DNA of 64,000 nt from Candidatus Nealsonbacteria bacterium (GTDB lineage Bacteria; Patescibacteriota; Minisyncoccia; Minisyncoccales; JAGMDC01), in assembly GCA_030612885.1 (NCBI GenBank), contig JAUWMZ010000004.1:17631-81630 (forward strand). Reading direction: 5' to 3'. Position 1 is the stretch's first letter. Every line of letters begins with the position of its first letter. Below, piece after piece: positions 32,905-49,563 of the stretch. The position numbers and the translations under genes were made by a program. Under the pieces are notes generated by a model. The model was not told the origin of the DNA and did no database searches. It was given only the letters and a program-made list of their open reading frames with translations.

Positions 32905-32906
32905 GA

Positions 32907-32990
32907 ATCATTTTAACATTCAATCATTTTAACATATTAACATAATTCAAATTCAGAATGTTAACATGTTAATATGTTTACATGATGGAA
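32907..32990 (+). repeat. hairpin spacer, TTAACAT/ATGTTAA word family
   Basis: aacatattaacat (32931-43) pairs perfectly with atgttaatatgtt (32966-78); shares a 21-nt core aattcaaattcagaatgttaa with 35303-35323. Confidence 0.75.
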
Positions 32991-33132
32991 ACCTTGGATT
33001 TTATTTTCTCTTTTATATTAGTATTACTTTTAATATACCTTTTATTAGTATCGATTTGGTAAAAATTTGTTTTGTTATTTAATAAAAGGTTAATTCATTG
33101 GTAAATAAATAAAAAACTTTTAACTTAAACAT

Positions 33133-35238
33133 ATGAGACAGTATCCAATTGAGAGAACAAGAGACATCGGTATTATCGCCCACATTGACGCTGGTAAGAC
33201 AACCGTTTCAGAACGGGTGCTTTTTTATACTGGAATTTCCCACAAAATTGGCGAGGTTCATAAAGGAGAAGCAATTATGGATTGGATGGAACAAGAAAAA
33301 GAGAGGGGGATTACTATTACTTCAGCTGCCACAACTTGTTTCTGGTCGCCAGAAAAGTATACAACAAAAGAGAAAACCCAGGAATATAGGATTAATATTA
33401 TTGATACTCCTGGCCATATTGATTTTACAGCTGAAGTTCAGCGCTCCCTTAGAGTTTTAGATGGAGCCGTAGTGGTTTTTGACGGAGTAGCCGGAGTAGA
33501 ACCTCAGTCAGAGACAGTTTGGCGTCAGGCGGACAAATTTAAAGTTCCCAGAATTTGCTTTATAAACAAGTTAGATAGAATAGGAGCTGATTTTGAGAAA
33601 AGTTTTAATTCAATTGGCCAAAAACTTTCTCCCAATGCTATAGCTATGCAAATACCTATTGGTGCTGAAGATAAACTTGAAGGGGTAATTGATTTAATGA
33701 AAATGAAAGCCCTGAAGTTTGAAGGCGAGCTTGGTGAAAAAGTAGTAGAAGAAGAAATTCCTCAAGATTTGAAAAAAAAAGCAAAAGAATGGCGGAAAAA
33801 AATGGTAGAGAAAATTGCTAGCGAAGATGAAAAACTTTTAGAAAAATACTTGGCTGAAAAAGAAATTTCAGAGAAAGAATTAAGAGAAGTTTTAAGAAAG
33901 GCCTGTATAAATTATAGGCTTATTCCAGTATTTTGCGGTTCAGCTTTAAAAAACAAAGGCGTTCAGCCGCTTTTGGATGCTGTTATTTATTATCTTCCTT
34001 CTCCTGTTGAGCTTCCGCCAATAGTTGGTAAAAATCCTAGAACCAATGAGGAAATGGAGAGAAAATCTGACGACAACGAGCCATTTACCGCTTTAGCTTT
34101 TAAGGTTGCCGCTGATCCTTATGTAGGAACTTTAACTTATTTTAGAGTTTATTCAGGCCGTTTGAAAAAAGGTTCTTATGCTTTAAATACTACTACTGGA
34201 GAAAAGGAACGATTAGGCAGAATTTTAAGAATGCATGCTGCTGAGAGGGAAGAAGTAGATGAGCTTTTTGCCGGTGATATTGCTGCTACTGTCGGCCTTA
34301 AAAAAACTAGTACTGGCCATACCTTATGCGATGAGGATCACCCTATTGTTTTAGAGGAAATTACTTTTCCAGAACCAGTTATTTCTATTAGAATTGAACC
34401 GAAAACCAAAGCTGACCAAGAAAAAATGGGTTTAGCCATGAAAAAATTATCAGAGGAAGATCCTACTTTTAGAATAAAAAGTGATGAAGAAACCGGCGAA
34501 ACCATTATTTCTGGCATGGGCGAACTTCATCTTGATATACTTTGCGACCGGATGAAAAGAGAATTTAAAGTTGAAGCAAATATGGGCAGGCCCCAGGTTG
34601 CTTATAAAGAAACAATTAGAACAGAAGCAGAAGCAGAAGGCAAATATATCCGCCAGTCAGGCGGCCGGGGCCAGTATGGCCATGTCTGGCTTCGTATAGA
34701 ACCGAAAGAGAAAGGAGAGGGTTTTGAATTTATTAATGAGATTAAAGGAGGAGTTATTCCCCGTGAATTTATTCCGGCCGTAGAAAAAGGAGTAAAAGAA
34801 GCAAAAGAAAAAGGAGTAGTTGCCGGTTATCCAGTGATAGACGTTTCTATTACTCTTTATGACGGCTCTTTTCATGAGGTTGATTCTTCGGAAATAGCTT
34901 TTAAAATTGCTGCTTCTATTGCTTTTCAAGCAGTAACCAAGAGAGCAAAGCCAGTACTCCTTGAGCCAATTATGAAATTAGAAGTAGTTATTCCTGAAGA
35001 TTTCTTGGGAGACGTAATTGGGGATTTAAGTTCCAGAAGAGGAAAAATAGAAGAAACCCAGGAGCGATTAAATATGAAAGTAATTGATGCCAAAATTCCT
35101 TTGGCAGAAATGTTTGGTTATGCTACTTCTCTCCGTTCTTTAACAGAAGGGAGAGGAACATTTACTATGGAATTTGACCATTACGAACCAGTGCCGGAAA
35201 ATATTAGTCAAGAAATTATAGAAGGCAAAAGAAAATAA
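33133..35238 (+). CDS. fusA: elongation factor G
   Basis: [35 protein letters not shown]. Confidence 0.97.
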
Positions 35239-35273
35239 TTTGATTTTTGTGGAGGAGTTTGCTAAAGTAAATA

Positions 35274-35350
35274 ATCATATTAACATACTAACATATTAAC
35301 AAAATTCAAATTCAGAATGTTAAAACGTTTGAATGTTAAAATGTTGAAAT
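35274..35350 (+). repeat. hairpin spacer, TTAACAT/ATGTTAA word family
   Basis: catattaacatactaacatattaac...gaatgttaaaacgtttgaatgttaaaatgttg. Confidence 0.75.
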
Positions 35351-35351
35351 A

Positions 35352-35642
35352 ATGACCTTAGATGAAATCAAAAATTTAATAGCATTAGATGGGGGAAAGT
35401 TTATTATTGTGGAAAATGGACAACCAGTGCTAATGATAATGAGCTTTAATGATTATAAAGAGATAATATGGAATTCTGAAAAAATTTCTTCCCAGCAATC
35501 AGATTCTAATTCTGAAAAAGAAATCCCAAAAGCTCAAGAAGTTCAAGGATTTAATTCAGAGAGCGATAACGAATATGCAGAGGTAAATGAGAGAACTCCC
35601 CAATCAGAAGAATCGTTAAAGATTGAGGATTTGCCGGTTTAG
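35352..35642 (+). CDS. orphan Phd/YefM-like antitoxin-domain protein with acidic tail
   Basis: GGKFIIVENGQPVLMIMSFNDYKEI resembles the Phd/YefM N-terminal domain; no toxin gene adjacent; inserted between fusA and tuf. Confidence 0.45.
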   Translation: MTLDEIKNLIALDGGKFIIVENGQPVLMIMSFNDYKEIIWNSEKISSQQSDSNSEKEIPKAQEVQGFNSESDNEYAEVNERTPQSEESLKIEDLPV

Positions 35643-35667
35643 AAACCCTTAATGAAAACCCTTGACC

Positions 35668-35695
35668 TTGACTTTTTTTTTGTTTTTAATAGAAT
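35668..35695 (+). promoter_or_regulatory. putative tuf promoter (TTGACT-16-TAGAAT)
   Basis: TTGACT 35668-35673, TAGAAT 35690-35695; places the following hairpin spacer in the tuf 5' UTR. Confidence 0.4.
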
Positions 35696-35699
35696 AAAT

Positions 35700-35786
35700 A
35701 ATATAATCTTATAACAACATACTAACGTATTAACATATTAACAAAAATTAGTGTTAAAATGTTAAAATGTTAAAATGTTAAAGTGA
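35700..35786 (+). repeat. hairpin spacer, TTAACAT/ATGTTAA word family
   Basis: caacatactaacgtattaacatattaac...gtgttaaaatgttaaaatgttaaaatgttaaag, ending 3 nt before the tuf ATG. Confidence 0.75.
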
Positions 35787-35789
35787 TTT

Positions 35790-36989
35790 ATGGCTGAGAA
35801 AGAAAAATTTGAAAGAGGAAAAACTCATCTTAATATTGGGACTATCGGTCACGTAGACCATGGTAAAACCACGCTTACAGCAGCTATTCTGCATGTTTTA
35901 AAGTTGAAAGGCTTTAAAGCATCGGAGAAAGCAGTAGAGCAGATTGATTCTGCTCCAGAAGAAAAAGCGCGTGGTTTAACTATTAATATTTCCCATTTAG
36001 AGTATGAAACAGAAAAGAGGCACTATGCGCATATTGATTGTCCTGGACACGCTGATTATATTAAAAATATGGTTACCGGTGCCGCGCAGATGGATGGAGC
36101 CATTTTGGTTGTTTCGGCTGCTGATGGTGTTATGCCTCAAACCAGAGAGCATATTTTGCTTGCTCGCCAAGTAGGATTATCTCATATAGTAGTATTTTTG
36201 AATAAATGTGATACCGTAGATGACCCTGAGATAATTGATTTAGTTGAGTCAGAAGTAAAAGAGCTTTTAAAAAAATATGAATTTCCAGGAGATGAAATTC
36301 CTGTTATTCGCGGTTCCGCTATTAAATCCCTTGATGCAAAGTCAGCTGATGATGAAGCAGCCAAACCAATTTTGGATTTAGCTAAAGCAGTAGATGATTA
36401 CTTTCCTGAACCAACTCGAGATATTGATAAACCATTTTTAATGGCTATTGAGGATGTTTTCTCTATTGCTGGAAGAGGAACTGTTGCTACTGGCAGGATT
36501 GAGCGAGGAATAGTTCATCCAAACGATGATGTAGAAATTGTTGGTTTTAAGCCTACCCAGAAAACAGTAGCAGTGAGCGTAGAAATGTTTAATAAGATAC
36601 TTGACGAAGGAAGAGCTGGTGATAATGTTGGAATTTTACTTCGCGGCCTTAAAAAAGAAGATGTGGAAAGAGGACAAGTTTTAGCAAATCCCGGCAGCAT
36701 TACTCCTCATACTGAATTTGACAGTGAAATTTATGTCCTGACCAAAGAAGAAGGTGGAAGACATTCTCCTTTCTTTGCCGGTTATAAGCCACAATTCTAT
36801 ATTCGAACGACTGATGTTACCGGAGATGTTGCCTTACCAGAAGGGACAGAGATGGTTATGCCCGGAGATACTGTTAATCTAAAAATTAAATTGATTGCTC
36901 CAATTGCTCTTGAAGAAAAACAAAGATTTGCTATCAGGGAAGGAGGTAAGACCGTAGGAGCAGGAGTAGTAACGAAGATAATTAAGTAA
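35790..36989 (+). CDS. tuf: elongation factor Tu
   Basis: [22 protein letters not shown], canonical EF-Tu throughout. Confidence 0.98.
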
Positions 36990-37117
36990 AATTTTCAATT
37001 TTCAATTTTTATTCAATTTTCAATTCTTTAATTTTCAATTAGAAATTAGAAATTAGAAATTGATTGAAAATTAGAAATTAGAAATTGAAAATTAATTCGT
37101 TGTTCTTTTGAGATAAG
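36990..37117 (+). repeat. hairpin spacer, ATTTTCAATT / AATTAGAAAT word family
   Basis: 5' half tandem attttcaatt units, 3' half tandem agaaatt / aattgaaaatt units. Confidence 0.8.
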
Positions 37118-37456
37118 ATGACTACAAAGAAAAAAGCAGATGAAATTGAAATAAAGCCCAAGTTAAGGATAAAATTACGGGCTTATGACCATAAGGTTAT
37201 TGATAATAGCGCTCGACAAATTGTTGAGGCGGCTCTGCGCTATGGTGTTGAAGTTTTTGGACCAATTCCTTTACCGACTGAAATACACAAATATACAGTC
37301 AATAGAGCTTCTTTTATTCATAAAGACAGCCGGGAGCAGTTTGAAATGAGAGTTCATAAACGGTTGATTGACATACTTAATCCCAATCCGAAAGTCATTG
37401 ATGCTTTGACTAGCTTGACTCTTCCAGCTGGGGTAGAAATTGAAATCAAGATGTAA
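37118..37456 (+). CDS. rpsJ: 30S ribosomal protein S10
   Basis: [21 protein letters not shown]..., GPIPLPT. Confidence 0.96.
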
Positions 37457-37462
37457 TATTAT

Positions 37463-37642
37463 CAACGAATTTACCAATCCTTTACGAATATACGAATATT
37501 TATATCATAAAACATGGTTTTTCTTTCTAAAACATTTATATTTTAGTAAAATTAATTAAGGGAAATAACCTACGGGTGTCGGGTTAACCCGACATTTTTT
37601 AATTCTATTCGTAAATTCGTATAAAATTTGTTATTCGTTGAT
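37463..37642 (+). repeat. long-range inverted repeat spacer, ACGAAT/ATTCGT word family, enclosing a terminator hairpin
   Basis: atcaacgaat...tacgaatatacgaata (5') versus tattcgtaaattcgtata...ttattcgttgat (3'); the 3' arm abuts the rplC ATG. Confidence 0.7.
37578..37600 (+). terminator. intrinsic terminator-like hairpin between rpsJ and rplC
   Basis: gtcgggttaacccgac (perfect palindrome) followed by attttttt. Confidence 0.6.
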
Positions 37643-37646
37643 TGTT

Positions 37647-38243
37647 ATGAAGTTTATCTTAGGAAAAAAATTAGAAATGTCTCAGTTTTTTAATGAAAAA
37701 GGAAAGGTTATTCCAGTAACCTTAATTGAAGCCGGACCTTGTTATGTCGCTCAAGTAAAGAATAAGGAAAAAGATAAATACGAAGCGGTTCAGCTTGGTT
37801 TTGAAAAAATACTTAAAAAGAAGAAAATAAAAAAAACAATGAAAGGAAAAGAATATAGATATTTAAGAGAGTTTAAAAATGGTAAAGAATACAAGATAGG
37901 GGACGAAATTAATGTTTCGCTTTTTCAAGAAGGAGATAAAGTAAAAATTTCTGGAATTTCTAAAGGAAAAGGATTTCAGGGGGCAGTGAAAAGATGGGGA
38001 TTTCATGGAAGAAATGCTACTCACGGAGTTAAGCATGAGCAAAGAACCCTGGGTTCAGTAGGAAGTGCTTATCCGGAAAGAGTAATCAAAGGAAAAAAAA
38101 TGCCCGGCAGAATGGGAGCCGAGAGAGTGACAGTTAAAAATTTAAAAATAGCGAAAGTTGATAAAGAAAATAACTTATTGGCAGTTGAAGGAGCAGTGCC
38201 AGGAAGACGCGGGACACTACTTGAAATACGTTCGGGAATATAG
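37647..38243 (+). CDS. rplC: 50S ribosomal protein L3
   Basis: Start moved to ATG 37647 (MKFILGKKLEM); SKGKGFQGAVKRWGF; last codons and TAG lie in a repeat-element terminus. Confidence 0.95.
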   Translation: MKFILGKKLEMSQFFNEKGKVIPVTLIEAGPCYVAQVKNKEKDKYEAVQLGFEKILKKKKIKKTMKGKEYRYLREFKNGKEYKIGDEINVSLFQEGDKVKISGISKGKGFQGAVKRWGFHGRNATHGVKHEQRTLGSVGSAYPERVIKGKKMPGRMGAERVTVKNLKIAKVDKENNLLAVEGAVPGRRGTLLEIRSGI

Positions 38244-38248
38244 GCAAT

Positions 38249-38396
38249 CGCTCGGAAAGTAATTTTTAGGAGACGCTCATTCGCTTCCAGCGAGCGAATT
38301 CGCTCAGTTCTCGGCAAAATTCGAGCACTCAAGATGTTGAGTGCTCGACCAAGCAATTTTGCCTCGAGGTGCTCCATAAAAATTACTTTCCTCGCT
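38249..38396. mobile_element. GC-rich ~148-nt multi-stem repeat element, copy A (MITE-like / structured RNA)
   Basis: About 95% identical to 58959-59108. 15-bp outer stem ggaaagtaattttta/taaaaattactttcc; hairpins attcgct/agcgaat and cgagcactcaa/ttgagtgctcg; ggcaaaatt/aattttgcc. Confidence 0.8.
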
Positions 38397-38481
38397 TAAA
38401 TATTTTTGTGAAACTTGTTGCCTCGCTTTTCAGAAAGATTAGAAAATAAAAAAAAATCGGCAACATTACAACATTATAACA

Positions 38482-39135
38482 ATGCCAACCATTCCAGTTT
38501 ACAATCAAAAAGGTGAAGAAACAGGAAAAACAGAATTACCTTCTGAGATATTTGAGGTTGCTTTTAGTCCTGATTTGGTTCATCAGGTTGTTGTTTCGCA
38601 AATGGCAAATCGAAGGCAGGTTAGCGCTCATACTAAAGACAGAAGTGAAGTGCGCGGAGGAGGCAAAAAACCCTGGCGGCAAAAAGGAACCGGAAGAGCA
38701 AGACATGGCTCTATCCGTTCACCTTTATGGAAGGGAGGAGGCGTAACATTTGGTCCGACTAAAGAGAGAAATTTTAAAAAAATAATTCCTAAAAAAATAA
38801 AAAGAAAAGCTCTTTTTATGGTTTTAAGCCAAAAGAAGAAAGATAATGAATTGGTTGTCTTAGATGAGTTGAAGATTGAGAAACCAGAGACAAAAATAAT
38901 GAAAGGAATAATCCAGAATCTGAAATCAAAAATTAAAAACATAAAAACAGAAAGTTTTCTAATCACTTTGCCAAAAATGGATAAGAATATCATTTTATCA
39001 ACCAGAAACATTCCTAAAATAGATACAATTCAAGCAAAAGAATTAAATTGTCTTGATATTTTAAATTATAAATACTTAATGCTTCCTAAAGAAGCAGTTG
39101 AAGTAATAAAAACTACGTTTTTAAAATCCCAATAA
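38482..39135 (+). CDS. rplD: 50S ribosomal protein L4
   Basis: VSAHTKDRSEVRGGGKKPWRQKGTGRARHGSIRSPLWKGGG. Confidence 0.96.
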   Translation: MPTIPVYNQKGEETGKTELPSEIFEVAFSPDLVHQVVVSQMANRRQVSAHTKDRSEVRGGGKKPWRQKGTGRARHGSIRSPLWKGGGVTFGPTKERNFKKIIPKKIKRKALFMVLSQKKKDNELVVLDELKIEKPETKIMKGIIQNLKSKIKNIKTESFLITLPKMDKNIILSTRNIPKIDTIQAKELNCLDILNYKYLMLPKEAVEVIKTTFLKSQ

Positions 39136-39263
39136 CCTATAATAATTTTCAATTTTCAATTTTCAATTTTCATTCAATTTTCAATTTAATAATTTTCAAT
39201 TAGAAATTAAAGAATTAGAAATTTATTAGAAATTAGAAATTAGAAATTAGAAATTTAAAACCT
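39136..39263 (+). repeat. hairpin spacer, ATTTTCAATT / AATTAGAAAT word family
   Basis: aattttcaattttcaattttcaattttcatt...attagaaattagaaattagaaattagaaattt. Confidence 0.8.
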
Positions 39264-39704
39264 GTGGCTTTACTTGATATCTTCAAAAGGAAGAAGAAAA
39301 AGGAAGAGAAAATTGAACCCGTAAAAAAGAAAGAAGAGGAGGCGAAAGAACCTCCTAAAGTTAGTGTTTCAAAACCCAAGCCCGCTTTCGTTAAAGCTAC
39401 GGCGGGCAGGGAAAAAAAGATTGATTTGGCTTGGAAGATTTTAGAGACACCTCATATTTCTGAAAAAGCCACTGATTTAACAAAGCAGAACAAATATGTT
39501 TTTAGGGTTTTTCCTAAATCAAATAAAAAAGAGATAAAAAAAGCAGTGGAAGATGTTTACGGGATAGATGTTTTAGATGTTAGAACTATTAAAATTCCCA
39601 GAAAGAAGAAGATGAGAGGCAGGGTTTCTGGCTGGAAAAAGGGCTATAAAAAAGCAATTGTGAAAATAAAAGAAGGCCAGAAGATAGAACTGTTACCTCG
39701 ATAA
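39264..39704 (+). CDS. rplW: 50S ribosomal protein L23 with Lys-rich N-terminal extension (GTG start)
   Basis: Core ILETPHISEKATDL...YVFRV; about 55-aa extension containing the KATAG hairpin insert. Confidence 0.9.
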   Translation: MALLDIFKRKKKKEEKIEPVKKKEEEAKEPPKVSVSKPKPAFVKATAGREKKIDLAWKILETPHISEKATDLTKQNKYVFRVFPKSNKKEIKKAVEDVYGIDVLDVRTIKIPRKKKMRGRVSGWKKGYKKAIVKIKEGQKIELLPR

Positions 39705-39708
39705 ACCT

Positions 39709-40539
39709 ATGAAAAAATATAAACCAACAACACCGGGAAGGAGAGGAATGACTAAAACAGATTCTTCTTTTTTAACTAAGAAAAAACCTGAAAAAGGTTT
39801 GCTTTCAGCAATCAGAAAAAGGGGAGGAAGAAATTTAGAAGGAAGAATTACAATCAGGCATCGGGGCGGCGGAGCGAAAAGAATGTATAGACATACTGAT
39901 TTTGGCCAAGAGAAAATTGATATTCCGGCAAAGGTTATTGCTTTAGAGTATGATCCTAACCGTTCTGCTTTTATTGCTCTTTTGGAATATCAAGACAAAG
40001 AGAAAAGATATATTTTGGCTCCCCAAGGATTAAAAAAGGGCGATGAAATAATGATTTCAGAAAAAACAGAACTTAAGCCGGGAAATAGAATGAAATTAAA
40101 AAATATTCCAGTCGGAACTTTGGTCTATAATGTTGAGCTTGAGCTAAACAAAGGAGGAATTATTGTAAAAGGAGCAGGCACTACAGCAAAGGTTTTAGCT
40201 CAAGAAGGAGGGTACACTCATCTTGTTCTTCCTTCTTCTGAAATTAGGAAAGTGTCCAGAGAATGTTTTGCTTCAATAGGCATAGTTTCAAACCCTGAAC
40301 ATAGATATGTCACAATAGGAAAGGCAGGCAGAACACGTCATAAGGGTAAAAGATCCCATGTCAGAGGTACGGCAATGAATCCTGTAGATCATCCACATGG
40401 CGGTGGAGAAGGGAGAACCGGGATTGGGATGAAGCATCCTAAAACTCCTTGGGGCAAGCCGGCCTTAGGAGTAAAAACAAGAAAGAAAAAATGGACAGAC
40501 AAGCTTATTATTAAAAGAAGAAAGAAGAAAAAGAAATAA
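39709..40539 (+). CDS. rplB: 50S ribosomal protein L2
   Basis: GRNLEGRITIRHRGGG, GTAMNPVDHPHGGGEG. Confidence 0.97.
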   Translation: MKKYKPTTPGRRGMTKTDSSFLTKKKPEKGLLSAIRKRGGRNLEGRITIRHRGGGAKRMYRHTDFGQEKIDIPAKVIALEYDPNRSAFIALLEYQDKEKRYILAPQGLKKGDEIMISEKTELKPGNRMKLKNIPVGTLVYNVELELNKGGIIVKGAGTTAKVLAQEGGYTHLVLPSSEIRKVSRECFASIGIVSNPEHRYVTIGKAGRTRHKGKRSHVRGTAMNPVDHPHGGGEGRTGIGMKHPKTPWGKPALGVKTRKKKWTDKLIIKRRKKKKK

Positions 40540-40548
40540 TAAATAAAT

Positions 40549-41453: not shown

Positions 41454-41456
41454 ATT

Positions 41457-42233: not shown

Positions 42234-42638
42234 ATGTTGATGCCGAAAAAAATTAAACATCGTAAATGGCGAAAAGGCCGTTCAAAGGGGATAGAAAGGC
42301 GAGGAACTGAACTATCTTTTGGTAGTTATGGTTTAAAAGTTTTAGAAAAGAAATGGATTACTGCTCGTCAGATCGAGGCAGCTCGCCGAGCGATTATTAG
42401 ATATTTAAGAAAAGGAGGAAAACTTTGGATAAGAATTTTTCCAGATAAACCTATAACTAAAAAAGGAACAGAAGTTCCTATGGGCGGAGGTAAGGGAAGT
42501 GTAGAGTATTATGCTTTTCCAATAAAACCAGGCAGAATTATTTTTGAATTAGAAGGAATAAAAGAAGAAATGGCTAAGGAAGCTTTTAAAAGAGCAACAG
42601 ATAAATTGCCAGTAAAAACAAAATTTATCAAGCGATAG
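42234..42638 (+). CDS. rplP: 50S ribosomal protein L16
   Basis: [36 protein letters not shown]. Confidence 0.96.
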
Positions 42639-42647
42639 AAAAACTTT

Positions 42648-42830
42648 ATGAAGACAAAAGAGCTACAACAAAAATCCCAATCAGAACTTCAGCATATTTT
42701 AATAAAAAATCGTGAGAAGTTACGACAGTTGCGTTTTGATTTAGCTTCTGGTAAGGTTAAAAATGTTAGAGAAATTCGAAAAATTAAAAAAGAAATTGCT
42801 CAAACATTAACAATTTTAAAGCAACAGTAA
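42648..42830 (+). CDS. rpmC: 50S ribosomal protein L29
   Basis: 60 aa, ELQ...[26 protein letters not shown]. Confidence 0.9.
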
Positions 42831-42831
42831 C

Positions 42832-43062
42832 ATGAAAAAAGAATTAAAAGGAACAGTTGTTTCTAATAAAATGTCAAAAACTATAGTAGTAGAAGTGGAA
42901 AGGATAAAAGTTCATCCTAAATACAAGAGAAGATATAAAGTACACAAAAAATACAAAGCCCACAATGAAAAGGGAGAGTTTAAGGTAGGAGACAAAGTAA
43001 TTATTGAAGAATGCCGGCCATTATCTAAAGAGAAGAAGTGGAGAGTTATAAAAAAGGTTTAA
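42832..43062 (+). CDS. rpsQ: 30S ribosomal protein S17
   Basis: [20 protein letters not shown]...HPKYKR...HNE...[14 protein letters not shown]. Confidence 0.94.
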
Positions 43063-43186
43063 AATTTTCAATTATTTAATTTTCAATTTTCATTAAATTT
43101 TCAATTATTTAATTTTCAATTAAATAAAAATTAGAAATTGAATCATTAGAAATTTAATAGAAATTAGAAATTAGAAATTTCACATT
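43063..43186 (+). repeat. hairpin spacer, ATTTTCAATT / AATTAGAAAT word family
   Basis: aattttcaattatttaattttcaattttcatt...attagaaattgaatcattagaaatttaatagaaattagaaattagaaattt. Confidence 0.8.
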
Positions 43187-43558
43187 GTGATTCAGCCACA
43201 GACAATGTTAAAAATAGTAGACAATACTGGAGCTAAAATTGCTCAGTGTTTTAAGGTACTTGGCGGAACACGGAGAAGATATGCTCAAATCGGAGATATA
43301 GTTGTAGTTGCCGTAAAAAAAGCAGAACCGAGAAAAGCTGTTAAAAAACACGATAAAGTAAGAGCAGTAATTGTTAGGCAAAAAAAGGCATATAGACGTT
43401 CAGACGGCTCCTATATTCGTTTTGATGATAATGCAGCAGTTATTCTTGAAGGTACTAGTAAAGAGCCGAAAGGGGGAAGAATTTTAGGACCAGTGGCTCG
43501 AGAAATAAAAGAGAAAGGATTTGAGAAAATAGCTGGAATGGCAAAAGACATGGTCTAA
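43187..43558 (+). CDS. rplN: 50S ribosomal protein L14 (GTG start)
   Basis: MIQPQTMLKIVDNTGAK..., IRFDDNAAVIL. Confidence 0.96.
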   Translation: MIQPQTMLKIVDNTGAKIAQCFKVLGGTRRRYAQIGDIVVVAVKKAEPRKAVKKHDKVRAVIVRQKKAYRRSDGSYIRFDDNAAVILEGTSKEPKGGRILGPVAREIKEKGFEKIAGMAKDMV

Positions 43559-43648
43559 CCACTAATATTTACTAATTTTAATCACGAATACTCACTAATA
43601 ATTTATTAGTGATAATTAGTAATTTTTATTCGCGATTTTATTAGCGGT
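43559..43648 (+). repeat. hairpin spacer, CACTAAT/CACGAAT word family
   Basis: ccactaatatttactaattttaatcacgaatactcactaataa | ttattagtgataattagtaatttttattcgcgattttattagcgg. Confidence 0.75.
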
Positions 43649-43972
43649 ATGAAGATTAAAAAAGGTGACACAGTATTAATCATTTCAGGTAAAGACCGAG
43701 CCAGAAAAGGCAAGGTTCTTCAGGTTATCCCTAAAGAAGAAAAGGTTTTGGTTGAAGGTATTAATATAAGAAAAAAAAGTGTTAAACCAAAAAAAAGCGG
43801 AGAAAAAGGACAAATAGTAGAAATGCCCGGTCCAATTTCTGTTTCAAATTTGAAACTTATTTGTCCGAAATGTAAAAAAGCAACAAGGATAGAGTATAAA
43901 ATAATAAAATCGAAAGATGCGAGTAAGAAAACAAAAATAAGAATATGCAAAAAATGCCAATCAGAAATATGA
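43649..43972 (+). CDS. rplX: 50S ribosomal protein L24 with C-terminal Cys4 zinc ribbon
   Basis: KOW motif KKGDTVLIISGKDRARKGKV; CPKCKK...CKKC. Confidence 0.93.
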   Translation: MKIKKGDTVLIISGKDRARKGKVLQVIPKEEKVLVEGINIRKKSVKPKKSGEKGQIVEMPGPISVSNLKLICPKCKKATRIEYKIIKSKDASKKTKIRICKKCQSEI

Positions 43973-44523
43973 TTAAACTAAAAGACAAATATATTAAAGA
44001 AGCAATACCGGCTATGAAAGAAAAATTCGGTTATAAAAACAGTATGGCTGTTCCTAAAATTGAGAAAGTAGTGATTAATAATAGTTTTGGCAGGATGATA
44101 ATGGATAAAACATCTGATGAGAAAAAGAAAATTAAAGAAGCAATTATACAAGATTTGTCTTTAATCTGCGGTCAACGTCCAGTTTTAACTAAATCAAAAA
44201 AGTCCATTTCTACTTTTAAAGTTCGTGAAGGTATGGAAATTGGGGCAAAAGTTACTTTGAGAAAGAAAAAAATGTATGATTTTTTAGATAGGTTAATTCA
44301 TATTACTTTTCCTCGCTCTCGTGATTTTCGAGGCATTGACTCTAAATCAATTGATGAAAAAGGAAATTTAACCATTGCTATTAAGGAACATATTTCTTTT
44401 CCAGAAGTATCGCCAGAGAAGACAAGATTTCTTTTCGGGTTTGAGATAACTGTGGTAACTACTGCCAAAAATAAAAAACAGGGATTAGAATTATTAAAAT
44501 TGTTGGGATTCCCAATAAAATAA
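43969..44523 (+). CDS. rplE: 50S ribosomal protein L5
   Basis: Start placed at ATG 43969 (ATGA overlap with rplX stop); MIKLKDKYIKE..., FRGI...DEKGNLTIAIKEHISFPE. Confidence 0.94.
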   Translation: MIKLKDKYIKEAIPAMKEKFGYKNSMAVPKIEKVVINNSFGRMIMDKTSDEKKKIKEAIIQDLSLICGQRPVLTKSKKSISTFKVREGMEIGAKVTLRKKKMYDFLDRLIHITFPRSRDFRGIDSKSIDEKGNLTIAIKEHISFPEVSPEKTRFLFGFEITVVTTAKNKKQGLELLKLLGFPIK

Positions 44524-44535
44524 CTCTACGAAATA

Positions 44536-44721
44536 ATGGCGACAAAATCTCAAATTGAAAAATCAGAGAAAAAACCTAAGTTTAGTTCCCGAATTGTTCG
44601 GAGATGTTTTAGGTGTGGCAGAAAAAGAGGATATATGAGAAAATTTGGATTGTGTCGGATTTGTTTTCGGGAAATGGCAAACCAGGGCTTGATACCGGGA
44701 GTAAAAAAGTCGTCTTGGTAA
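44536..44721 (+). CDS. rpsN: 30S ribosomal protein S14, type Z (zinc-binding)
   Basis: 61 aa, CFRCGR...CRICFRE, ends KSSW. Confidence 0.95.
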
Positions 44722-44849
44722 AAATCCAAATTACAAAATCCAAATGTCAAATCAAATCCAAAATCCAAATGTCAAAAAAAGAGTTTTAGTTATTTGATAT
44801 TTAGTCATTTGACATTGAATTGACATTTGAGCTTTGACATTTGACATTC
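44722..44849. repeat. ~128-nt hairpin spacer, AAATCC/CAAATGTC versus GACATTTG word family; inverted copy of 49431-49556
   Basis: 44722-44780 is the exact reverse complement of 49498-49556 (59 nt); the rest matches apart from one 7-nt unit. Confidence 0.9.
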
Positions 44850-44855
44850 ACAATT

Positions 44856-45245
44856 ATGACTGATCCAATAGCCGATATGTTCAACAGAATAAAAAATGCT
44901 CAAGCCGTATTAAAACCTACGGTGAGTATTCCTTTTTCAAATTTAAAATATGAAATTGCTAAAATTTTAGAGAAAGAAAAATATATCAAAAAAATAGAGA
45001 AAAAGAGAAGAAAGATAGAAAAGACAATAGAAATTTCTCTTAAATATAATAAAAATATTCCGGCTATTGTTGAATTGCGAAGAGTTTCAAAATCAGGACA
45101 GAGAATTTATCTTCCAGTTCAGAAAATCAAGAGAGTAAAAGGAGGATTTGGTTCAGCCATTATTTCTACATCAAAGGGTTTAATGACAAATAGAGAAGCA
45201 AGAAAAAATAAGTTAGGCGGAGAGGTTATTTGCGAAATGTGGTAA
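44856..45245 (+). CDS. rpsH: 30S ribosomal protein S8
   Basis: Start moved to ATG 44856 (MTDPIADMFNRIKNA); the upstream 5 codons in the ORF track lie in the repeat. Confidence 0.95.
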   Translation: MTDPIADMFNRIKNAQAVLKPTVSIPFSNLKYEIAKILEKEKYIKKIEKKRRKIEKTIEISLKYNKNIPAIVELRRVSKSGQRIYLPVQKIKRVKGGFGSAIISTSKGLMTNREARKNKLGGEVICEMW

Positions 45246-45277
45246 TTTCCTTGCTTAAAATTTTAACTATTAAATTT

Positions 45278-45859
45278 ATGAGTCGTATTGGGAAAAAACC
45301 AATTGAAATACCAGAGGGGGTGGAAATAAAAATAGAGGATGGAAAAGTAGTAGTAAAAGGTCCCAAAGGCGAACTTTCTAAGGAAATTCGACCTGAAATT
45401 AGGGTTGAAATAAAAAATGAAGAACTTTATGTTTTTCCTAAAAAAGAAATTCAAGAAAACTCTGTTGTAAAAAAAGATTCAGGAAAGACAAAACAAATAA
45501 GGGCATTTTGGGGTTTAACTAGATCTTTTTTAGCTAATATGATAAAAGGAGTTGTTCAGGGTTATGAAAAGAAACTGGAAATACAAGGTTTAGGGTATAA
45601 AGCTTCTTTAGAAGGAAATGATTTAATATTAAACATCGGTTTTAGCCACCCCAAAAAAATTGAGACGCCAGAAGGCATAAAACTATCAGTAGAGAAAAAT
45701 ATTATTATTATTTCAGGTTTTGATAAAGAATTAGTAGGGAGAGTGGCTGCTGGAATAAGAAAAGTTAGGCCGCCAGAGCCGTATAAAGGAAAGGGAATCA
45801 GATATGTTGGTGAAGTTGTTAGAAAGAAAGTAGGAAAAAAGGCAGCAACCGCCGAGTAA
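45278..45859 (+). CDS. rplF: 50S ribosomal protein L6
   Basis: Start moved to ATG 45278 (MSRIGKKPIEIPEGV); PEPYKGKGIRY. Confidence 0.95.
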   Translation: MSRIGKKPIEIPEGVEIKIEDGKVVVKGPKGELSKEIRPEIRVEIKNEELYVFPKKEIQENSVVKKDSGKTKQIRAFWGLTRSFLANMIKGVVQGYEKKLEIQGLGYKASLEGNDLILNIGFSHPKKIETPEGIKLSVEKNIIIISGFDKELVGRVAAGIRKVRPPEPYKGKGIRYVGEVVRKKVGKKAATAE

Positions 45860-45861
45860 GT

Positions 45862-46034
45862 CGCTCGGGAATATAGTTTTTAGAAAATTTGCTCGGCAAC
45901 AAAGTTTCAAAGTACCGACCCTCAAAATCCCAGCGAGATTTTGGGGTCTAAGTTCTCAACGGCTGGCTTCTCGCTTCACTCGGAGACCATGCCCAGCCGC
46001 CTCCGAAGTTTACTTTGAAACTTATTGCCTCGCT
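45862..46034. mobile_element. GC-rich multi-stem repeat element, divergent copy C (same termini, different interior)
   Basis: Termini cgctcggg... and ...ttgcctcgct; stems aagtttcaaagta/tactttgaaactt, gaccctcaaaatc/gattttggggtc, ggctgg/cccagcc. Confidence 0.65.
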
Positions 46035-46081
46035 TAATTTTATTTGTAATTCGTTTTCATTCGTAAGAATATTAAAATACA

Positions 46082-46474
46082 ATGTTAAAGAAACAAGAAA
46101 AACGTGTAAGGCGCCATAAGAGAGTAAGAGCGAAAATATTTGGGACTGGTAGCATTCCTCGACTTTGTGTTTTTAGGTCAAACAAACATATTTATGTGCA
46201 GGTGATTGACGATGATAAAGGAAAAACTTTAGTTACGGCGAGCGATCAGGAGATAAAAAAGTTAAAAATTAAAAGTTCAAAGTTGAAAGAGAAAGAAGAA
46301 GAGAAAATAAGAACAGGTAAAATTGAGGTTGCTTATGAGATTGGGAAGTTAATTGCTGAAAAAGCCCTGAAAAATAAAATTAAAAAAGTTGTCTTTGACA
46401 GAGGAGGATACCGATACCATGGGAGAGTTAAAGCGCTTGCAGAAGGGGCGAGGGAAGCTGGATTAGTGTTTTAA
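46082..46474 (+). CDS. rplR: 50S ribosomal protein L18
   Basis: [59 protein letters not shown]. Confidence 0.95.
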
Positions 46475-46508
46475 ACCAGTTTAAAATTTTCAATCGTAAA
46501 TTAGTATT

Positions 46509-47003
46509 ATGTTTAAACAAAGAGAAAAACCAAAAGATGAGTTTGAATCCAAGTTGTTAGATTTAACTCGAGTAAGCAGGATGACATCCGGTGGACGTCG
46601 GCTTCGGTTCCGAGCCCTTATAGTGGTTGGTAACAAAAAAGGAAAAGTTGGAATAGGAGTTGCTAAAGGTAAAGATGTGGCTCAATCTATTGAAAAAGCC
46701 ACTCGTTTAGCAAAGAAAAATTTAATTGAGGTTCCAATTGAAGACGGAACTATTTTTTATGAAGTTGTGTCTAAGTTTGGAGCAGCTAAAGTTTTACTTA
46801 GACCTCAAAGAAAAACAAGAGGATTGGTTGCTGGCGGCACTGTTCGGGTAATTTGCGATTTAGCTGGAATTAAAAATATTTCTTCAAAGATTCTCGGAAG
46901 GACGGGAAATAAGTTAAATAACGCTAAAGCAACAATTGAAGCATTAGAGAAATTAAAAACTAAAAGCAAACATGCAATTACACCAACTACATCCAAAGCA
47001 TAA
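46509..47003 (+). CDS. rpsE: 30S ribosomal protein S5
   Basis: RVSRMTSGGRRLRFRALIVVGNKKGKVGIGVAKGKDV. Confidence 0.95.
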   Translation: MFKQREKPKDEFESKLLDLTRVSRMTSGGRRLRFRALIVVGNKKGKVGIGVAKGKDVAQSIEKATRLAKKNLIEVPIEDGTIFYEVVSKFGAAKVLLRPQRKTRGLVAGGTVRVICDLAGIKNISSKILGRTGNKLNNAKATIEALEKLKTKSKHAITPTTSKA

Positions 47004-47400
47004 ATCAAAAAGGAAAAAAAGAATTGGCCGTGGTGGTAAACGCGGTACTTATTCTGGTCGTGGAGTAAAGGGGCAAAAATCGCGTTCTGGAAGAAAGTTA
47101 GAGCCGATTATCCGAGGATTAATTAAAAGATATCCTAAGTTAAGAGGATATAAGTTTAAGGAATGGAAAACCAGGCCAGCTGTGGTTAATGTTGGCAGTT
47201 TAAAGAAATTTAAAACTGGAGAAAAAATTAATCCATCTGCCTTGCTTGAAAAGAAAATAATTCCTAAAATAAAAGGAAGAATGCCAAAAGTAAAAATTTT
47301 AGGGAAAGGGAAACTGACAAAAGCCTTAACTATAGAGGGTTGTGAAGTTTCCAAAAGCGCCACAGAAAAAATTGAGAAAGCTGGCGGCAGAATTGTATAA
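46972..47400 (+). CDS. rplO: 50S ribosomal protein L15
   Basis: KRIGRGGKRGTYSGRGVKGQKSRSG; overlaps the rpsE 3' end, so there is no room for rpmD (L30). Confidence 0.94.
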   Translation: MQLHQLHPKHKSKRKKRIGRGGKRGTYSGRGVKGQKSRSGRKLEPIIRGLIKRYPKLRGYKFKEWKTRPAVVNVGSLKKFKTGEKINPSALLEKKIIPKIKGRMPKVKILGKGKLTKALTIEGCEVSKSATEKIEKAGGRIV

Positions 47401-47408
47401 CATACAAT

Positions 47409-48710
47409 ATGAATTGGCTCAACAAAATAATCCAAATATTTAAAATAAAAGATTTGCGCAAAAAGATAATTTTTGTCTTGTTCATTTTTGCTGTTTTTCG
47501 ATTGATGGCGAATATCCCAATTCCGGGAGTAAATCTTGAAAATTTAAGAATGTTTTTTGCCAGCAATGAAAGTTTAAGTTTATTAAACTTGTTTACCGGC
47601 GGCGCATTGGAAAGATCTTCTATAGTAATGCTTGGGTTAGGGCCTTATATTACCGCTGTTATTATTCTTCAGCTTTTAACAATGATTTTTCCCCAATTGG
47701 AAAGAATGTACAAAGAAGAAGGAGAACAGGGCAGGCAAAAATTTAATCAGTTTGGAAGAATGTTAACTGTTCCTTTGGCGGCTATGCAAGGATTTGCAAT
47801 GTTGACCTTGCTTCAACGCCAGAGTCCGCCTGTAGTTGAATTTTCTTCTCCTGTTATGCTTTTTGCCGCTATTTTAAGCATTACTGCCGGAGCAGTATTT
47901 TTGATGTGGTTAGGAGAATTGATTACTGAAAAAGGAATTGGCAATGGCGTTTCTCTTTTAATTTTTGCTGGCATTATTGCTGCTTTTCCAATGTCTATTT
48001 ATCAAAGTTATTTTGACATTGAATCAAGTCCTGAAAAAACCTTTGCCTACCTTTTTTTCTTTATCTTAGCTTTAGTTATAATTTTCGGCGTTGTCTTAGT
48101 TAATGAAGCAAGAAGAAATATCCCTGTCTCTTACGCTAAGAGAGTAAGAGGAATGAAAATGTATGGCGGCGTTTCTACTTATTTACCTTTAAATCTTAAT
48201 CCGGCCGGGGTTATTCCTATTATTTTTGCTCTTTCTATTATGCTTTTTCCAGGAATGATTGCCAGCTTCTTGGGAGGAGCTGGGGGAGTTGTTGGCAGTA
48301 TTGCTCAAGCTGTTGGAGGTTTTTTTGACCCTCAAAGAAATCTTCTGGGCTATGGGATTTTCTATTTTCTTTTAGTGGTTCTATTTACCTTTTTCTATAC
48401 AGCAGTAACTTTTGACCCTAAGGCAATCTCTACTAATTTACAAAAAATGGGCGGGTTTGTGCCTGGTATTAGGCCAGGTTCTTCCACTGCTATCTTTTTG
48501 AAATATATTTTAAATAGGATCCTGCTCTTCGGAGCTTTATTTTTAGGAACAATTGCCGTAATGCCTTTTATGGTTAGCGCTATTACTAGTATTCAGACAT
48601 TTACTTTCTTAATAGGAGGAACATCTTTATTGATTATAGTGGCAGTAGTTTTAGAAACAGTAAAACAAATTAAAGCCCAGTTGCAGATGAGGGACTATGA
48701 TACGTTTTAA
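47409..48710 (+). CDS. secY: preprotein translocase subunit SecY
   Basis: 10-TM protein; MLGLGPYITAVIILQLL, GELITEKGIGNGVSLLIF. Confidence 0.96.
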   Translation: MNWLNKIIQIFKIKDLRKKIIFVLFIFAVFRLMANIPIPGVNLENLRMFFASNESLSLLNLFTGGALERSSIVMLGLGPYITAVIILQLLTMIFPQLERMYKEEGEQGRQKFNQFGRMLTVPLAAMQGFAMLTLLQRQSPPVVEFSSPVMLFAAILSITAGAVFLMWLGELITEKGIGNGVSLLIFAGIIAAFPMSIYQSYFDIESSPEKTFAYLFFFILALVIIFGVVLVNEARRNIPVSYAKRVRGMKMYGGVSTYLPLNLNPAGVIPIIFALSIMLFPGMIASFLGGAGGVVGSIAQAVGGFFDPQRNLLGYGIFYFLLVVLFTFFYTAVTFDPKAISTNLQKMGGFVPGIRPGSSTAIFLKYILNRILLFGALFLGTIAVMPFMVSAITSIQTFTFLIGGTSLLIIVAVVLETVKQIKAQLQMRDYDTF

Positions 48711-48783
48711 TGTCATTTTAACATTTTTTTAATTTATTTTTTGTTAATATGTTAACATATTAGTATATTAAGATGATTTTTTT
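48711..48783 (+). repeat. spacer of the TTAACAT/ATGTTAA word family
   Basis: tgtcattttaacattttttt...ttgttaatatgttaacatattagtat. Confidence 0.6.
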
Positions 48784-49482
48784 ATGAACAAGCCATTGAA
48801 TTTTACTTTCATAGGGAGATCTGGTTCAGGAAAAGGAACCCAGGCAAAACTTTTAATAAAGCACTTTGGAAATCTATTATATGTTTCCACTGGTGATTTA
48901 TTTAGAGATTTATCTAAAGCCAATACAGATACAAGCATAAGAGTTCAAAAAATAATAGAAGAAGGAGGTTTGCCGTTTGATGATTTAGCAGCTGCTTTAT
49001 GGATGCATAAACTTGCTTATAATCTTAAAGAAAATGAAGGATTTATTCTTGATGGCGCTCCTCGCAGAGTAAATGAAGCTCAAACATTAGACAGATATTT
49101 AGATTTTTTAGAAAGAAAAGAAACCTGTTTTAATTTGTTAATTGATATTTCCAGGCAGGAAGCATTTGACCGTTTATCAAAAAGACGAATTTGTAAGAAC
49201 TGTGGTCGTTTAATTCCTTGGGTTGGTGAGTTTAAAAAAATAAAAGTTTGCGACAAATGCGGAGGAGAATTAATTACTCGTGCTGATGATACGTCGGAAG
49301 CAATAAATAATAGATTAGATTATTACGAAGAGAGAGTAGCTCCAACTGTAAAATATTATGAAGAGCAAGACAGGTTGATAAAAATTAATGGCGAGCAATC
49401 TATAGAAGATGTTTTTAAAGAGATTCTAGAAAATGTCAAATGTCAAAGCTCAAATGTCAATTCAATGTCAAACGTCAAATGA
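48784..49482 (+). CDS. adk: adenylate kinase (zinc-lid type) with repeat-derived C-terminal tail
   Basis: GRSGSGKGTQAKLL, LDGAPRRVNEAQ, CKNCGR...CDKCGG; last ~17 codons (ENVKCQSSNVNSMSNVK) are encoded by the 49431-49556 repeat. Confidence 0.93.
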   Translation: MNKPLNFTFIGRSGSGKGTQAKLLIKHFGNLLYVSTGDLFRDLSKANTDTSIRVQKIIEEGGLPFDDLAAALWMHKLAYNLKENEGFILDGAPRRVNEAQTLDRYLDFLERKETCFNLLIDISRQEAFDRLSKRRICKNCGRLIPWVGEFKKIKVCDKCGGELITRADDTSEAINNRLDYYEERVAPTVKYYEEQDRLIKINGEQSIEDVFKEILENVKCQSSNVNSMSNVK

Positions 49483-49556
49483 CTAAATGTCAAATTATTT
49501 TTTTGACATTTGGATTTTGGATTTGATTTGACATTTGGATTTTGTAATTTGGATTT
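49431..49556. repeat. ~126-nt hairpin spacer, inverted copy of 44722-44849
   Basis: See 44722-44849; overlaps the adk 3' end and generates the spurious MDFGFDLTFGFCNLD N-terminus of the map ORF. Confidence 0.9.
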
Positions 49557-49563
49557 ATTAGCG

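Follow-up and report, generated by a model that had tools for sequence, protein, structure and literature searches.

The 64,000-nt stretch of Candidatus Nealsonbacteria DNA analysed here (the window) is AT-rich (33% GC) and carries on its plus strand the str/S10/spc supercluster of ribosomal-protein genes, from rpsL (32007) to map (50328). The genes follow each other in the order S12, S7, EF-G, orf96, EF-Tu, S10, L3, L4, L23, L2, S19, L22, S3, L16, L29, S17, L14, L24, L5, S14, S8, L6, L18, S5, L15, SecY, Adk and Map; their identities come from the Pfam annotation of an identical contig of the same strain and from that of relatives. The genomes of the candidate phyla radiation (CPR) are small and compact, and few gene arrangements are as well conserved across bacteria as str/S10/spc. 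Many gene junctions of the supercluster hold a spacer of 50–190 nt made of two arrays: a 7–8-nt word is repeated in tandem over the 5' half, and a nearly complementary word over the 3' half. In the predicted minimum free energy (MFE) structures, the one array pairs with the other. These word-array hairpins, 50–180 nt in size, are the subject of this study.

A sequence-only reading of the window had reported 14 such intervals. All 14 hold the structure described, and direct reading of the sequence, Tandem Repeats Finder (TRF) and an inverted-repeat search agree on this. The elements fall into four families: A (TTAACAT/ATGTTAA, period 8), B (AATTTTC/AGAAATT, period 7 in TRF), C (CAC[GT]AAT/ATT[AC]GTG, period 8–12) and D (AAATCC-AAATGTC/GACATTT, period 7 in TRF). 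They are listed below with a z-score that compares the folding of each element with that of 200 dinucleotide shuffles.

32907-32990, plus strand: A1, TTAACAT/ATGTTAA with an 8-nt period, between rpsG and a small open reading frame (ORF) upstream of fusA; z -3.0.
35274-35350, plus strand: A2, A-type, between fusA and orf96; z -1.5, weak.
35700-35786, plus strand: A3, A-type, in the tuf leader, with 10 nt between its end and the ATG; z -4.1.
36990-37097, plus strand: B1, AATTTTC/AGAAATT with a 7-nt period, between tuf and rpsJ; z -2.1.
37463-37642, plus strand: C1, between rpsJ and rplC, outer arms 37463-37499 and 37606-37642, inner hairpin 37574-37597; z -5.1.
39144-39258, plus strand: B2, B-type, between rplD and rplW (GTG start); z -2.2.
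40867-40916, plus strand: A4, degenerate A-type with an array in the 3' arm only, between rpsS and rplV; z -1.4, not significant.
42142-42233, plus strand: C2, CACGAAT-CACTAAT/ATTAGTG, between rpsC and rplP, with 1 nt between its end and the ATG, termini CCACGAAT...ATTAGTGG; z -5.3.
43063-43183, plus strand: B3, B-type, between rpsQ and rplN (GTG start); z -4.7.
43559-43647, plus strand: C3, C-type, between rplN and rplX; z -3.9.
44722-44848, plus strand: D1, AAATCC-AAATGTC/GACATTT with a 7-nt period, between rpsN and rpsH; z -3.1.
48711-48783, plus strand: A5, degenerate A-type, between secY and adk; z -1.3, not significant.
49431-49556, minus strand: D2, inverted copy of D1, between adk and map, the final codons of adk being formed by its first 52 nt; z -5.9.
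8041-8112, plus strand: C4, C-type, outside the cluster between lepB and hisS (Pfam), with a degenerate 3' end but an nhmmer E-value of 1e-16 to the C family; z -1.1.

The 3' words had been described as complements of the 5' words. They are only near-complementary, with 5–7 pairs per unit of 7–8 nt: the B unit AATTTTC facing AGAAATT forms five Watson–Crick pairs and one G-U pair and leaves one C-A mismatch per heptamer, and many A units (CATATTAA facing TGTTAAAA) have one A-A mismatch per octamer, the identical mismatch being repeated in every unit of one arm. Family A begins with TCATNTNAACAT and ends with ATGTTAANATGA, and the termini of family C are CCAC[GT]AAT...ATTAG[TC]GG. A4 and A5 are degenerate, with a poorly preserved 5' arm in both. 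D2 is the reverse complement of D1: the two copies agree in 100% of the positions of both arms and differ in their loops. C1 is a composite, in which outer arms of C type (CGAAT/ATTCG) surround a GC-rich, terminator-like hairpin with a T-run (37574-37597). Nesting is also seen in relatives of the window, labelled L083 to L280 and introduced below: a GC-rich element lies beside C arms between the S3 and L16 genes of L084, and an insert lies within the A arms of the tuf leader of L279. The idea that copies of families A, B and C keep a single orientation relative to transcription holds within the window but not in the relatives, where both orientations are present.

The word hairpins have a GC content of 11–26% and modest predicted energies, which amount to about -0.1 to -0.3 kcal/mol per nt. 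Individually, 10 of the 14 fold significantly better than their own shuffles (z -2.1 to -5.9); A2, A4, A5 and C4 do not. D1 folds better as antisense than as sense (-35.1 versus -25.7).

An assembly artefact is ruled out, since the sequence of the window recurs with 100% identity in two independent assemblies, over 13.2 and 3.9 kb. One of them breaks off right at B2 and B3, where real repeats would be expected to interrupt an assembly.

Insertion, turnover and distribution of the elements

Relatives were reached through homologues of ribosomal protein L2, followed by look-ups of the contigs that carry their ribosomal clusters. The identity of L2 to that of the window is 91% in the contig L278, 89% in L084, 85% in L083, 82% in L085 and 75% in L279 and L280 (these contig labels are not to be confused with ribosomal proteins). 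The closest L2 proteins carry the names Candidatus Parcubacteria or Patescibacteria. A scan of contigs with L2 patterns listed best matches that are only 54–66% identical, with no close relative among the matches listed.

Alignment of the orthologous operons, which had been suggested as a check, shows that the presence of an element at a given junction differs among close relatives. Where the window has elements of 90–130 nt, the orthologous junctions of L085, L083 and L278 are 0–20 nt long or are ATGA overlaps, and L085 is compact at almost all junctions, the tuf leader excepted. The spacer is 39 nt at the A2 position in L083 and L085; in the same two genomes it is 8–20 nt at that of C2, 2–3 nt at that of C3 and 2–8 nt at that of A5. 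The A4 junction is 4–16 nt in relatives, and L084 has an ACATAAC/GTTACGT hairpin there. The outer arms of C1 are absent in L083 and L279. The B1 junction (tuf to S10) is 11–49 nt in L278, L083, L085 and L279; in L084, it is occupied by a C-type element. For A1, there is an orthologous A-type copy at the same junction in L084, but none in L083 and L085. Conversely, hairpins are present in the relatives L083, L084, L279 and L280 at junctions that are compact in the window (L2 to S19, L22 to S3, L24 to L5, and S8 to L6), and relatives also carry one between S12 and S7, which is compact in the window as well.

The B2 and B3 junctions illustrate an insertion most directly. In L085, both positions are ATGA stop/start overlaps; L083 has a 1-nt spacer between L4 and L23 and an ATGA overlap between S17 and L14; L278, whose contig covers only the first of these two junctions, has an overlap between L4 and L23. 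In the window, both junctions read TAA, element, GTG. The replacement of an ATGA overlap by this arrangement accounts both for the two GTG starts of rplW and rplN and for the junction sequence that these genes were noticed to share. Since B1 and B2 are absent from L278, they are younger than the split between genomes with 91% identical L2.

Families also replace each other at the same site. L084 has a C-type element where the window has a B-type, at tuf to S10 and at L4 to L23, and the tuf leader of L084 and L280 carries AAATCCT/TTTAGGA instead of family A; a further family, AAAGTTA/ACTTTTAA, is found in L083. The number of words differs between orthologous copies, as between the window and L084 for A1 and between the window and L083 for A3. 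These comparisons show gain, loss and family replacement on the timescale that separates genomes with 75–91% identical L2.

The elements are copied whole. The alignment of B1, B2 and B3 runs over their full length and shows common irregularities such as TTTTCATTCAATTTTC, and C2, C3 and C4 align as well, with termini common to all three. A profile search with the B family finds three copies in L280 and also the metagenome contig L255, and the elements of both have irregular stretches in common with B3. The C family is also present in L084. In L083, two near-identical A copies lie on either side of rpsH, together with two near-identical copies of an element E. The 5' arm of D2 encodes the last ~16 residues of Adk (NVKCQSSNVNSMSNVK), a tail that is missing from three orthologues; its insertion hit the end of adk, without regard to the reading frame.

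In metagenomes, a scan with a two-armed A-type core as the query returned more than 120 stretches, 47 of which are true word-array hairpins. About 8 of the 47 adjoin genes of the ribosomal cluster; the others lie between other genes and mostly fill the whole spacer. Both orientations of these A-type hairpins relative to the flanking genes are seen: the genes on either side are ++ in 12 cases, -- in 18, convergent in 6 and divergent in 5. More than one word family is present on eleven contigs. We also used a detector that retains pairs of neighbouring TRF arrays, the first of which base-pairs with the second in the MFE fold; none of its 70 matches in the metagenome loci lies inside a frame of 100 codons, which indicates that the elements are strictly intergenic. 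A scan of viral contigs with the A word gave direct arrays lacking a complementary 5' array (0–1 arm words upstream), and these repeats were set aside as unrelated.

Taken together, the empty orthologous junctions, the whole-element homologues, the occurrence of the families in other genomes, the two orientations and the strictly intergenic position give good support to one of the proposals made at the outset, that of a mobile hairpin population that targets gene junctions. It is on this comparative evidence that the mobility of the elements is shown.

The ribosomal supercluster is a hotspot for these elements. In the window, 13 of the 27 junctions of the cluster (rpsL to map) hold one, against 1 of 51 elsewhere (Fisher p = 1e-6), and word counts likewise show a concentration in the spacers of the cluster. 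The density of detector matches per 100 kb is 10.9 in the window, 12.5 in six close relatives and 0.62 in 80 ribosomal-cluster loci of diverse bacteria. In the 45 related loci that have a true hairpin, the density of non-seed hairpins is 8 times higher inside the ribosomal clusters than outside (3.28 versus 0.41 per 10 kb, p = 3e-7).

RNA-level effects and competing explanations

The tuf leader differs from the other junctions in that a word-array hairpin is present in all nine genomes compared, L085 included; it is of A type in seven and of AAATCC type in L084 and L280, and in all nine it ends a few nucleotides before the ATG. A promoter-like site precedes it:

35668-35695, plus strand: TTGACT-16-TAGAAT, upstream of the tuf leader hairpin, matching the consensus at 10 of 12 positions.

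The sequence TTGACT...TAnAAT is conserved upstream of tuf in the nine genomes. The consensus structure of the leader is also conserved; double changes affect only 3 of its 23 pairs, and since the alignment of repeats is ambiguous, this count is weak alone. These observations suggest that the tuf-leader hairpin is maintained by selection on its structure, whatever the word family.

The impression that this organism has few Shine–Dalgarno (SD) sites is borne out: an SD-like tetramer precedes 4 of 79 genes, compared to a background of 10%. Positions -20 to -1 are about 85–90% A+T, and A is favoured at -3. The predicted accessibility of positions -20 to -6 is lower in genes that lie behind a hairpin (0.33 versus 0.55, p = 0.007), and that of the start codon does not differ between genes with and without an upstream hairpin. 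If the hairpins were selected as RNA on the sense strand, G-U pairs should favour that strand. No such asymmetry is found in seven genomes: the sense strand folds better in 21 of 40 elements and the antisense strand in 19 (Wilcoxon p = 0.64), although the difference reaches 17 kcal/mol in individual elements. The suggestion of an RNA-level function has support in the tuf leader, in the enrichment in the cluster and in the lower accessibility upstream of start codons; the lack of a sense-strand advantage, the rapid turnover and the translated arm of D2 speak against an RNA role that is general and strand-specific.

A scan of the window against Rfam 15 at gathering thresholds returns only two tRNAs, and a scan of 31700-50600 by E-value returns only a chance match of D1 to a plant miRNA precursor (28.5 bits, compared to a gathering score of 90). 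Attenuation or termination by the word hairpins, which had also been considered, does not fit their AU-rich stems, which have no consistent U-tract; the separate GC-rich hairpin inside C1 is an exception. A terminator scan matches only this inner hairpin (37574-37597), the best terminator-like site of the cluster, and the central part of D2. A GC-rich stem followed by a T-run is conserved between S10 and L3 in L083, L084, L278 and L279 and absent in L085, and the hairpin at 37574-37597 may attenuate or terminate transcription within the S10 operon. The number of promoter-like sites shows no enrichment (71, compared to 59 +/- 9).

We argue that the spacers are probably several families of small non-coding fold-back repeat elements that colonise gene junctions in this Parcubacteria lineage. 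Each element consists of two inverted tandem arrays of a 7–8-nt word, and the comparisons above show that it is copied to new junctions as a whole, in either orientation. Replication slippage would change the number of words and homogenise each arm; a single mismatch that recurs in every repeat of an arm would result if slippage homogenises an array faster than the arms remain complementary. Only insertions exactly between a stop and a start codon would survive, and at former ATGA overlaps the end of the element would supply a TAA stop while the GTG start remains. Inside operons, the elements would be co-transcribed, which would place AU-rich hairpins 0–25 nt upstream of the next start codon. 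It may be that the folded insert holds the upstream stop and the downstream start close to one another in space, and that it is tolerated for this reason in an organism without SD sites, where initiation is probably coupled, or driven by the accessibility of the leader. The hairpins may also serve, as REP sequences (repetitive extragenic palindromes) do, as a barrier to 3' exonucleases or as processing sites. Between cistrons, the elements would thus be tolerated or, in places, put to use.

Several points weigh against this explanation. Neither a target-site duplication nor a consistent target motif is found when filled and empty junctions or the flanks of D1 and D2 are compared, although a 2-nt TA duplication is still possible in such AT-rich DNA. 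No transposase, recombinase or gene related to RAYT (REP-associated tyrosine transposase) is present in the 64-kb window, according to Pfam, or among the annotated neighbours in relatives. The two assemblies of the same strain, which are the only contigs of the same species, are identical to the window, so that they offer no strain-level pair of filled and empty junctions. An 8-fold enrichment in an essential, highly expressed cluster is unexpected for selfish DNA that is purely deleterious or neutral, and the constant occupancy of the tuf leader is likewise unlike neutral selfish DNA. D2 is partly translated, so that the full hairpin cannot persist there on an mRNA that is being translated. 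Last, the juxtaposition of stop and start and the effect on mRNA stability are steps that we only infer, and that may or may not operate.

The enrichment in the ribosomal cluster and the always-occupied tuf leader leave an appreciable probability, although a distinctly lower one, to a mainly functional explanation. The elements would then be selected RNA devices, that is, stem-loops between cistrons or in leaders that determine the stability of mRNA segments, their processing, or the tuning or coupling of initiation; the families would be interchangeable modules and mobility would be their supply. The proportion of occupied junctions inside and outside the cluster (13/27 and 1/51), the density of non-seed hairpins (3.28 and 0.41 per 10 kb) and the presence of a hairpin in 9 of 9 tuf leaders despite the replacement of the word family all speak for such devices, as do the absence of SD sites, the predicted occlusion of positions -20 to -6 by 3' arms that spare the start codon, and the fact that the S10/spc cluster of the cyanobacterium Microcoleus is likewise punctuated by heptamer hairpins. 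On the contrary, the sense strand has no folding advantage in spite of strand differences of up to 17 kcal/mol, both orientations occur, the occupancy of most junctions is not conserved (L085 lacks almost all elements), 4 of the 14 copies in the window fold no better than shuffles, an arm of D2 lies within the adk reading frame, and no element matches Rfam.

A more specific proposal, which we regard as doubtful, is that word-array hairpins are a dedicated intercistronic device of bacteria that lack SD sites and bear heptamer repeats. The fold-back may set the stop codon beside the next start, so that a terminating ribosome re-initiates across the stem (a "shunt"), or the hairpin may govern segment half-lives along the 17-kb ribosomal mRNA. 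In another version, a machinery shared by Patescibacteria and cyanobacteria, with a preference for highly transcribed operons, may write or move the hairpins. The always-occupied tuf leader, the ~8-fold enrichment and the pattern in Microcoleus are compatible with this proposal.

It is improbable that the elements grew in place, in which case replication slippage and quasi-palindrome correction would have lengthened a short palindrome at each junction independently, and nothing would have moved from one site to another. Such growth would produce the periodic mismatches within one arm and the differences in word number between orthologous copies (A1, A3), and there is a precedent in the P6b stem-loop of the Nostoc trnL intron, where indels of 7 nt affect one or both sides of the stem (PMC4476775). 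It does not explain why copies at different junctions have irregular segments and termini in common, why the arms of D1 and D2 are identical in opposite orientation, or why the B elements of L280 and L255 resemble B3 in their irregular stretches; ATGA overlaps provide no palindrome as a seed, and the present data already suggest that copies cluster by family, not by junction. Even less probable is a role as binding sites in double-stranded DNA, where iteron-like inverted blocks would recruit a nucleoid, partition or regulatory protein that organises the highly transcribed ribosomal region. The fixed 7–8-bp period of the words in two inverted blocks is consistent with this role, and a study of Nostoc speculates on a protein that binds heptamer repeats (bioRxiv 10.1101/2022.06.06.494920). 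One sequence-specific binder is hard to reconcile with at least six unrelated families that coexist and swap at the same junction; a period of 7–8 bp sets successive sites on different faces of the helix, the tuf leader already suggests that the complementarity of the arms is conserved and not the identity of the word, and no candidate protein was identified. We give the least credit to terminators or attenuators that would split the supercluster into many transcription units. The GC-rich stem and T-run inside C1, conserved between S10 and L3 in five genomes, and the promoter-like site before the tuf hairpin speak for this explanation. Against it, the AU-rich stems lack a consistent U-tract, the terminator scan finds nothing beyond the inner hairpin of C1 and part of D2, there is no excess of promoter-like sites, and in most spacers no promoter is present from which the transcription of essential genes could restart.

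Comparison with known repeats

The closest known kind is that of the heptamer-repeat hairpins of cyanobacteria, among which filamentous species have long been known for heptamer repeats; it is met here in another phylum and at an unusual density. No paper on such elements in Patescibacteria came up in a search of the literature. The P6b stem-loop in Nostoc's tRNA-Leu(UAA) intron is built on one of two 7-nt motifs; the motif classes TDNGATT and NNTGAGT have repeatedly replaced each other in related strains, and unit-sized indels affect one or both arms (PMC4476775). Both kinds of hairpins build their stems from tandem 7-nt units that face near-complementary units (families B and D here), both change their length by whole units, and both show replacement of the motif class at the same site (here in the tuf leader, between tuf and S10 and between L4 and L23). 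The Microcoleus S10/spc cluster has heptamer-array hairpins between L3 and L4, L23 and L2, S3 and L16, and S8 and L6, and the few detector matches in the 80 diverse ribosomal clusters are mostly cyanobacterial. The elements described here differ in that the host belongs to the Patescibacteria (CPR), the words are AT-rich, with a period of 8 in family A and of 8–12 in family C, the occupancy is far higher (about half of the junctions of one operon), and copies at different junctions are shown to be homologous as whole elements. The short tandemly repeated sequences STRR1-3 of cyanobacteria have the units CCCCAGT, TTGGTCA and CAACAGT, to which the present words are unrelated. No sequence homology to cyanobacterial units was found, nor is any expected.

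Other heptamers are arranged differently. The TAACTGA direct repeats of Beggiatoaceae and cyanobacteria are nearly all intergenic and oriented with the downstream gene, which usually has no recognisable SD site; the arrays often end 1 nt before the start codon and are predicted to be unstructured, with one inverted case in 170 sets (PMC4679880). The elements of the window, on the contrary, are always paired with a complementary array. Regulatory roles have been suggested for the direct heptamer arrays of Nostoc, and are unproven (bioRxiv 10.1101/2022.06.06.494920).

Like REPs, the mosaic elements that they form (BIMEs) and the hairpin-forming REP doublets called REPINs, the present elements are extragenic, often intercistronic, hairpin-forming, multicopy (14 copies in 64 kb) and non-autonomous. 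Newbury et al. reportedly found in 1987 that intercistronic REPs stabilise upstream segments of mRNA, and we know of no report that REPs concentrate in ribosomal-protein operons. The present elements lack the conserved core of REPs and REPINs (about 25 nt, within a range of ~20–40 nt), their arms being tandem 7–8-nt words; several unrelated families coexist, and no gene for a RAYT (a Y1 transposase) is seen in the 64 kb examined or in the annotated neighbours of relatives. REPINs are described as inverted doublets that fold into hairpins of about 100 nt and evolve as mobile units in the genome (PMC3116915).

With miniature inverted-repeat transposable elements (MITEs) such as Correia, RUP and Nezha, the hairpins share a small size (75–180 nt), the lack of coding capacity, terminal inverted repeats, closely similar copies at unrelated sites and differences in presence between relatives, as well as insertion at gene ends that at times changes the C-terminus of a protein (here Adk). 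They differ from MITEs in that the whole element is an inverted repeat that is internally tandem-repetitive. No consistent target-site duplication is seen, apart from a possible 2-nt TA one, and no parent insertion sequence is found in the window. In the Foldback (FB) transposons of eukaryotes, the long inverted terminal repeats are likewise composed of short sub-repeats in tandem, and the element snaps back into a hairpin; they are of kilobase scale and sometimes coding, and the analogy is one of architecture that implies no relationship. Guide arrays of the CRISPR or TIGR type were rejected, the 7–8-mers being contiguous with no unique spacers between them.

In some lineages, even the str/S10/spc operon is a hotspot for small mobile DNA. 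The elements account for the GTG starts of rplW and rplN, for an Adk tail encoded by a repeat, and for breaks of assembly in ribosomal clusters, which matter for the quality of metagenome-assembled genomes and for phylogenies based on ribosomal proteins. The phenomenon of heptamer hairpins in cyanobacteria gains a second phylum, a very distant one, in which the genomic context is the same, and a comparison of the two provides a handle on its role. Should the hairpins influence coupling or mRNA stability, this would bear on how the synthesis of ribosomal proteins is balanced in organisms without SD sites.

Other elements and genes around the cluster

Two further spacers of the cluster, 38244-38481 and 45860-46081, hold a different, GC-richer palindromic element, which is a distinct class from the word hairpins with the same behaviour at junctions:

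38248-38400, plus strand: GC-richer, MITE-like palindromic element of ~150 nt between rplC and rplD, termini GCTCGGAAAGTAATTTTTAGGAG...CTCCATAAAAATTACTTTCCTCGC; z of the spacer -7.6.
45860-46081, plus strand: second subfamily of the GC-richer palindromic element, between rplF and rplR, aligning with the copy between L3 and L4 of L278; z -3.6 sense and -5.1 antisense.

The element at 38248-38400 is closely similar over its full length to 58955-59110, after rplY (L25), and to 12666-12817 of L084, between S3 and L16. A partial copy lies at ~63067-63100 after rpsB, and other copies are present in L182, L278 and L279.

Some contigs that IMG/VR classes as viral (L111, L112, L133 and L139, GC 55%) bear dense sets of heptamer-array hairpins, which belong to several families (TTGGAAA/AATTTCT, AGCCGTT/TAGCTAA and GGTTCAG/AACCCTTG), with up to 10 in 14 kb and some in back-to-back chains. 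The B word matches some GC-55% viral contigs that abound in other heptamer hairpins, which is a lead, not a relationship.

Between rpsG and fusA, the plus strand carries a small hydrophobic ORF (32982-33062, MMETLDFIFSFILVLLLIYLLLVSIW), whose ATG is overlapped by the 3' end of A1. It is kept with synonymous changes in L083, L084 and L085, a pattern of conservation that makes it probably the gene of a real membrane micro-protein. The position of the 96-aa ORF between fusA and tuf (35352-35642, plus strand) is conserved in all relatives (80–116 aa); the protein of the window has no Pfam match, and those of relatives have weak or faint matches to PhdYeFM antitoxins.

The motif GAGCGAAGCGA(A/G) or GCGATAGCGAA, often preceded by TTTTCACTTTTAA, recurs just upstream of start codons or in the loops of hairpins, at ~30340-30362 and 50395-50460 of the window, at 10925-10944, 11870-11891 and 17525-17546 of L083 and at ~10885-10900 of L084. 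It contains GCGAAGC, a sequence known to form a very stable mini-hairpin.

Directly after map and before a glycosyltransferase gene, the window has a pair of genes on the plus strand (50481-51566) that encode a DUF6922 protein and a nucleotidyltransferase toxin of AbiEii type; in L083 and L085, the glycosyltransferase gene directly follows map. HigB-like genes are inserted between rpsG and fusA in L083, and a GIY-YIG gene between rplN and rplX in L280. These insertions indicate that the cluster also gathers small mobile genes. Last, L278 has another kind of junction repeat between L2 and S19 (6329-6480), consisting of three tandem copies of a 47-nt unit, GAACCTCCGCTTTCAGCGAAGAACCTTGATTACTATGTAATTAA, where the junction of the window is 9 nt long.

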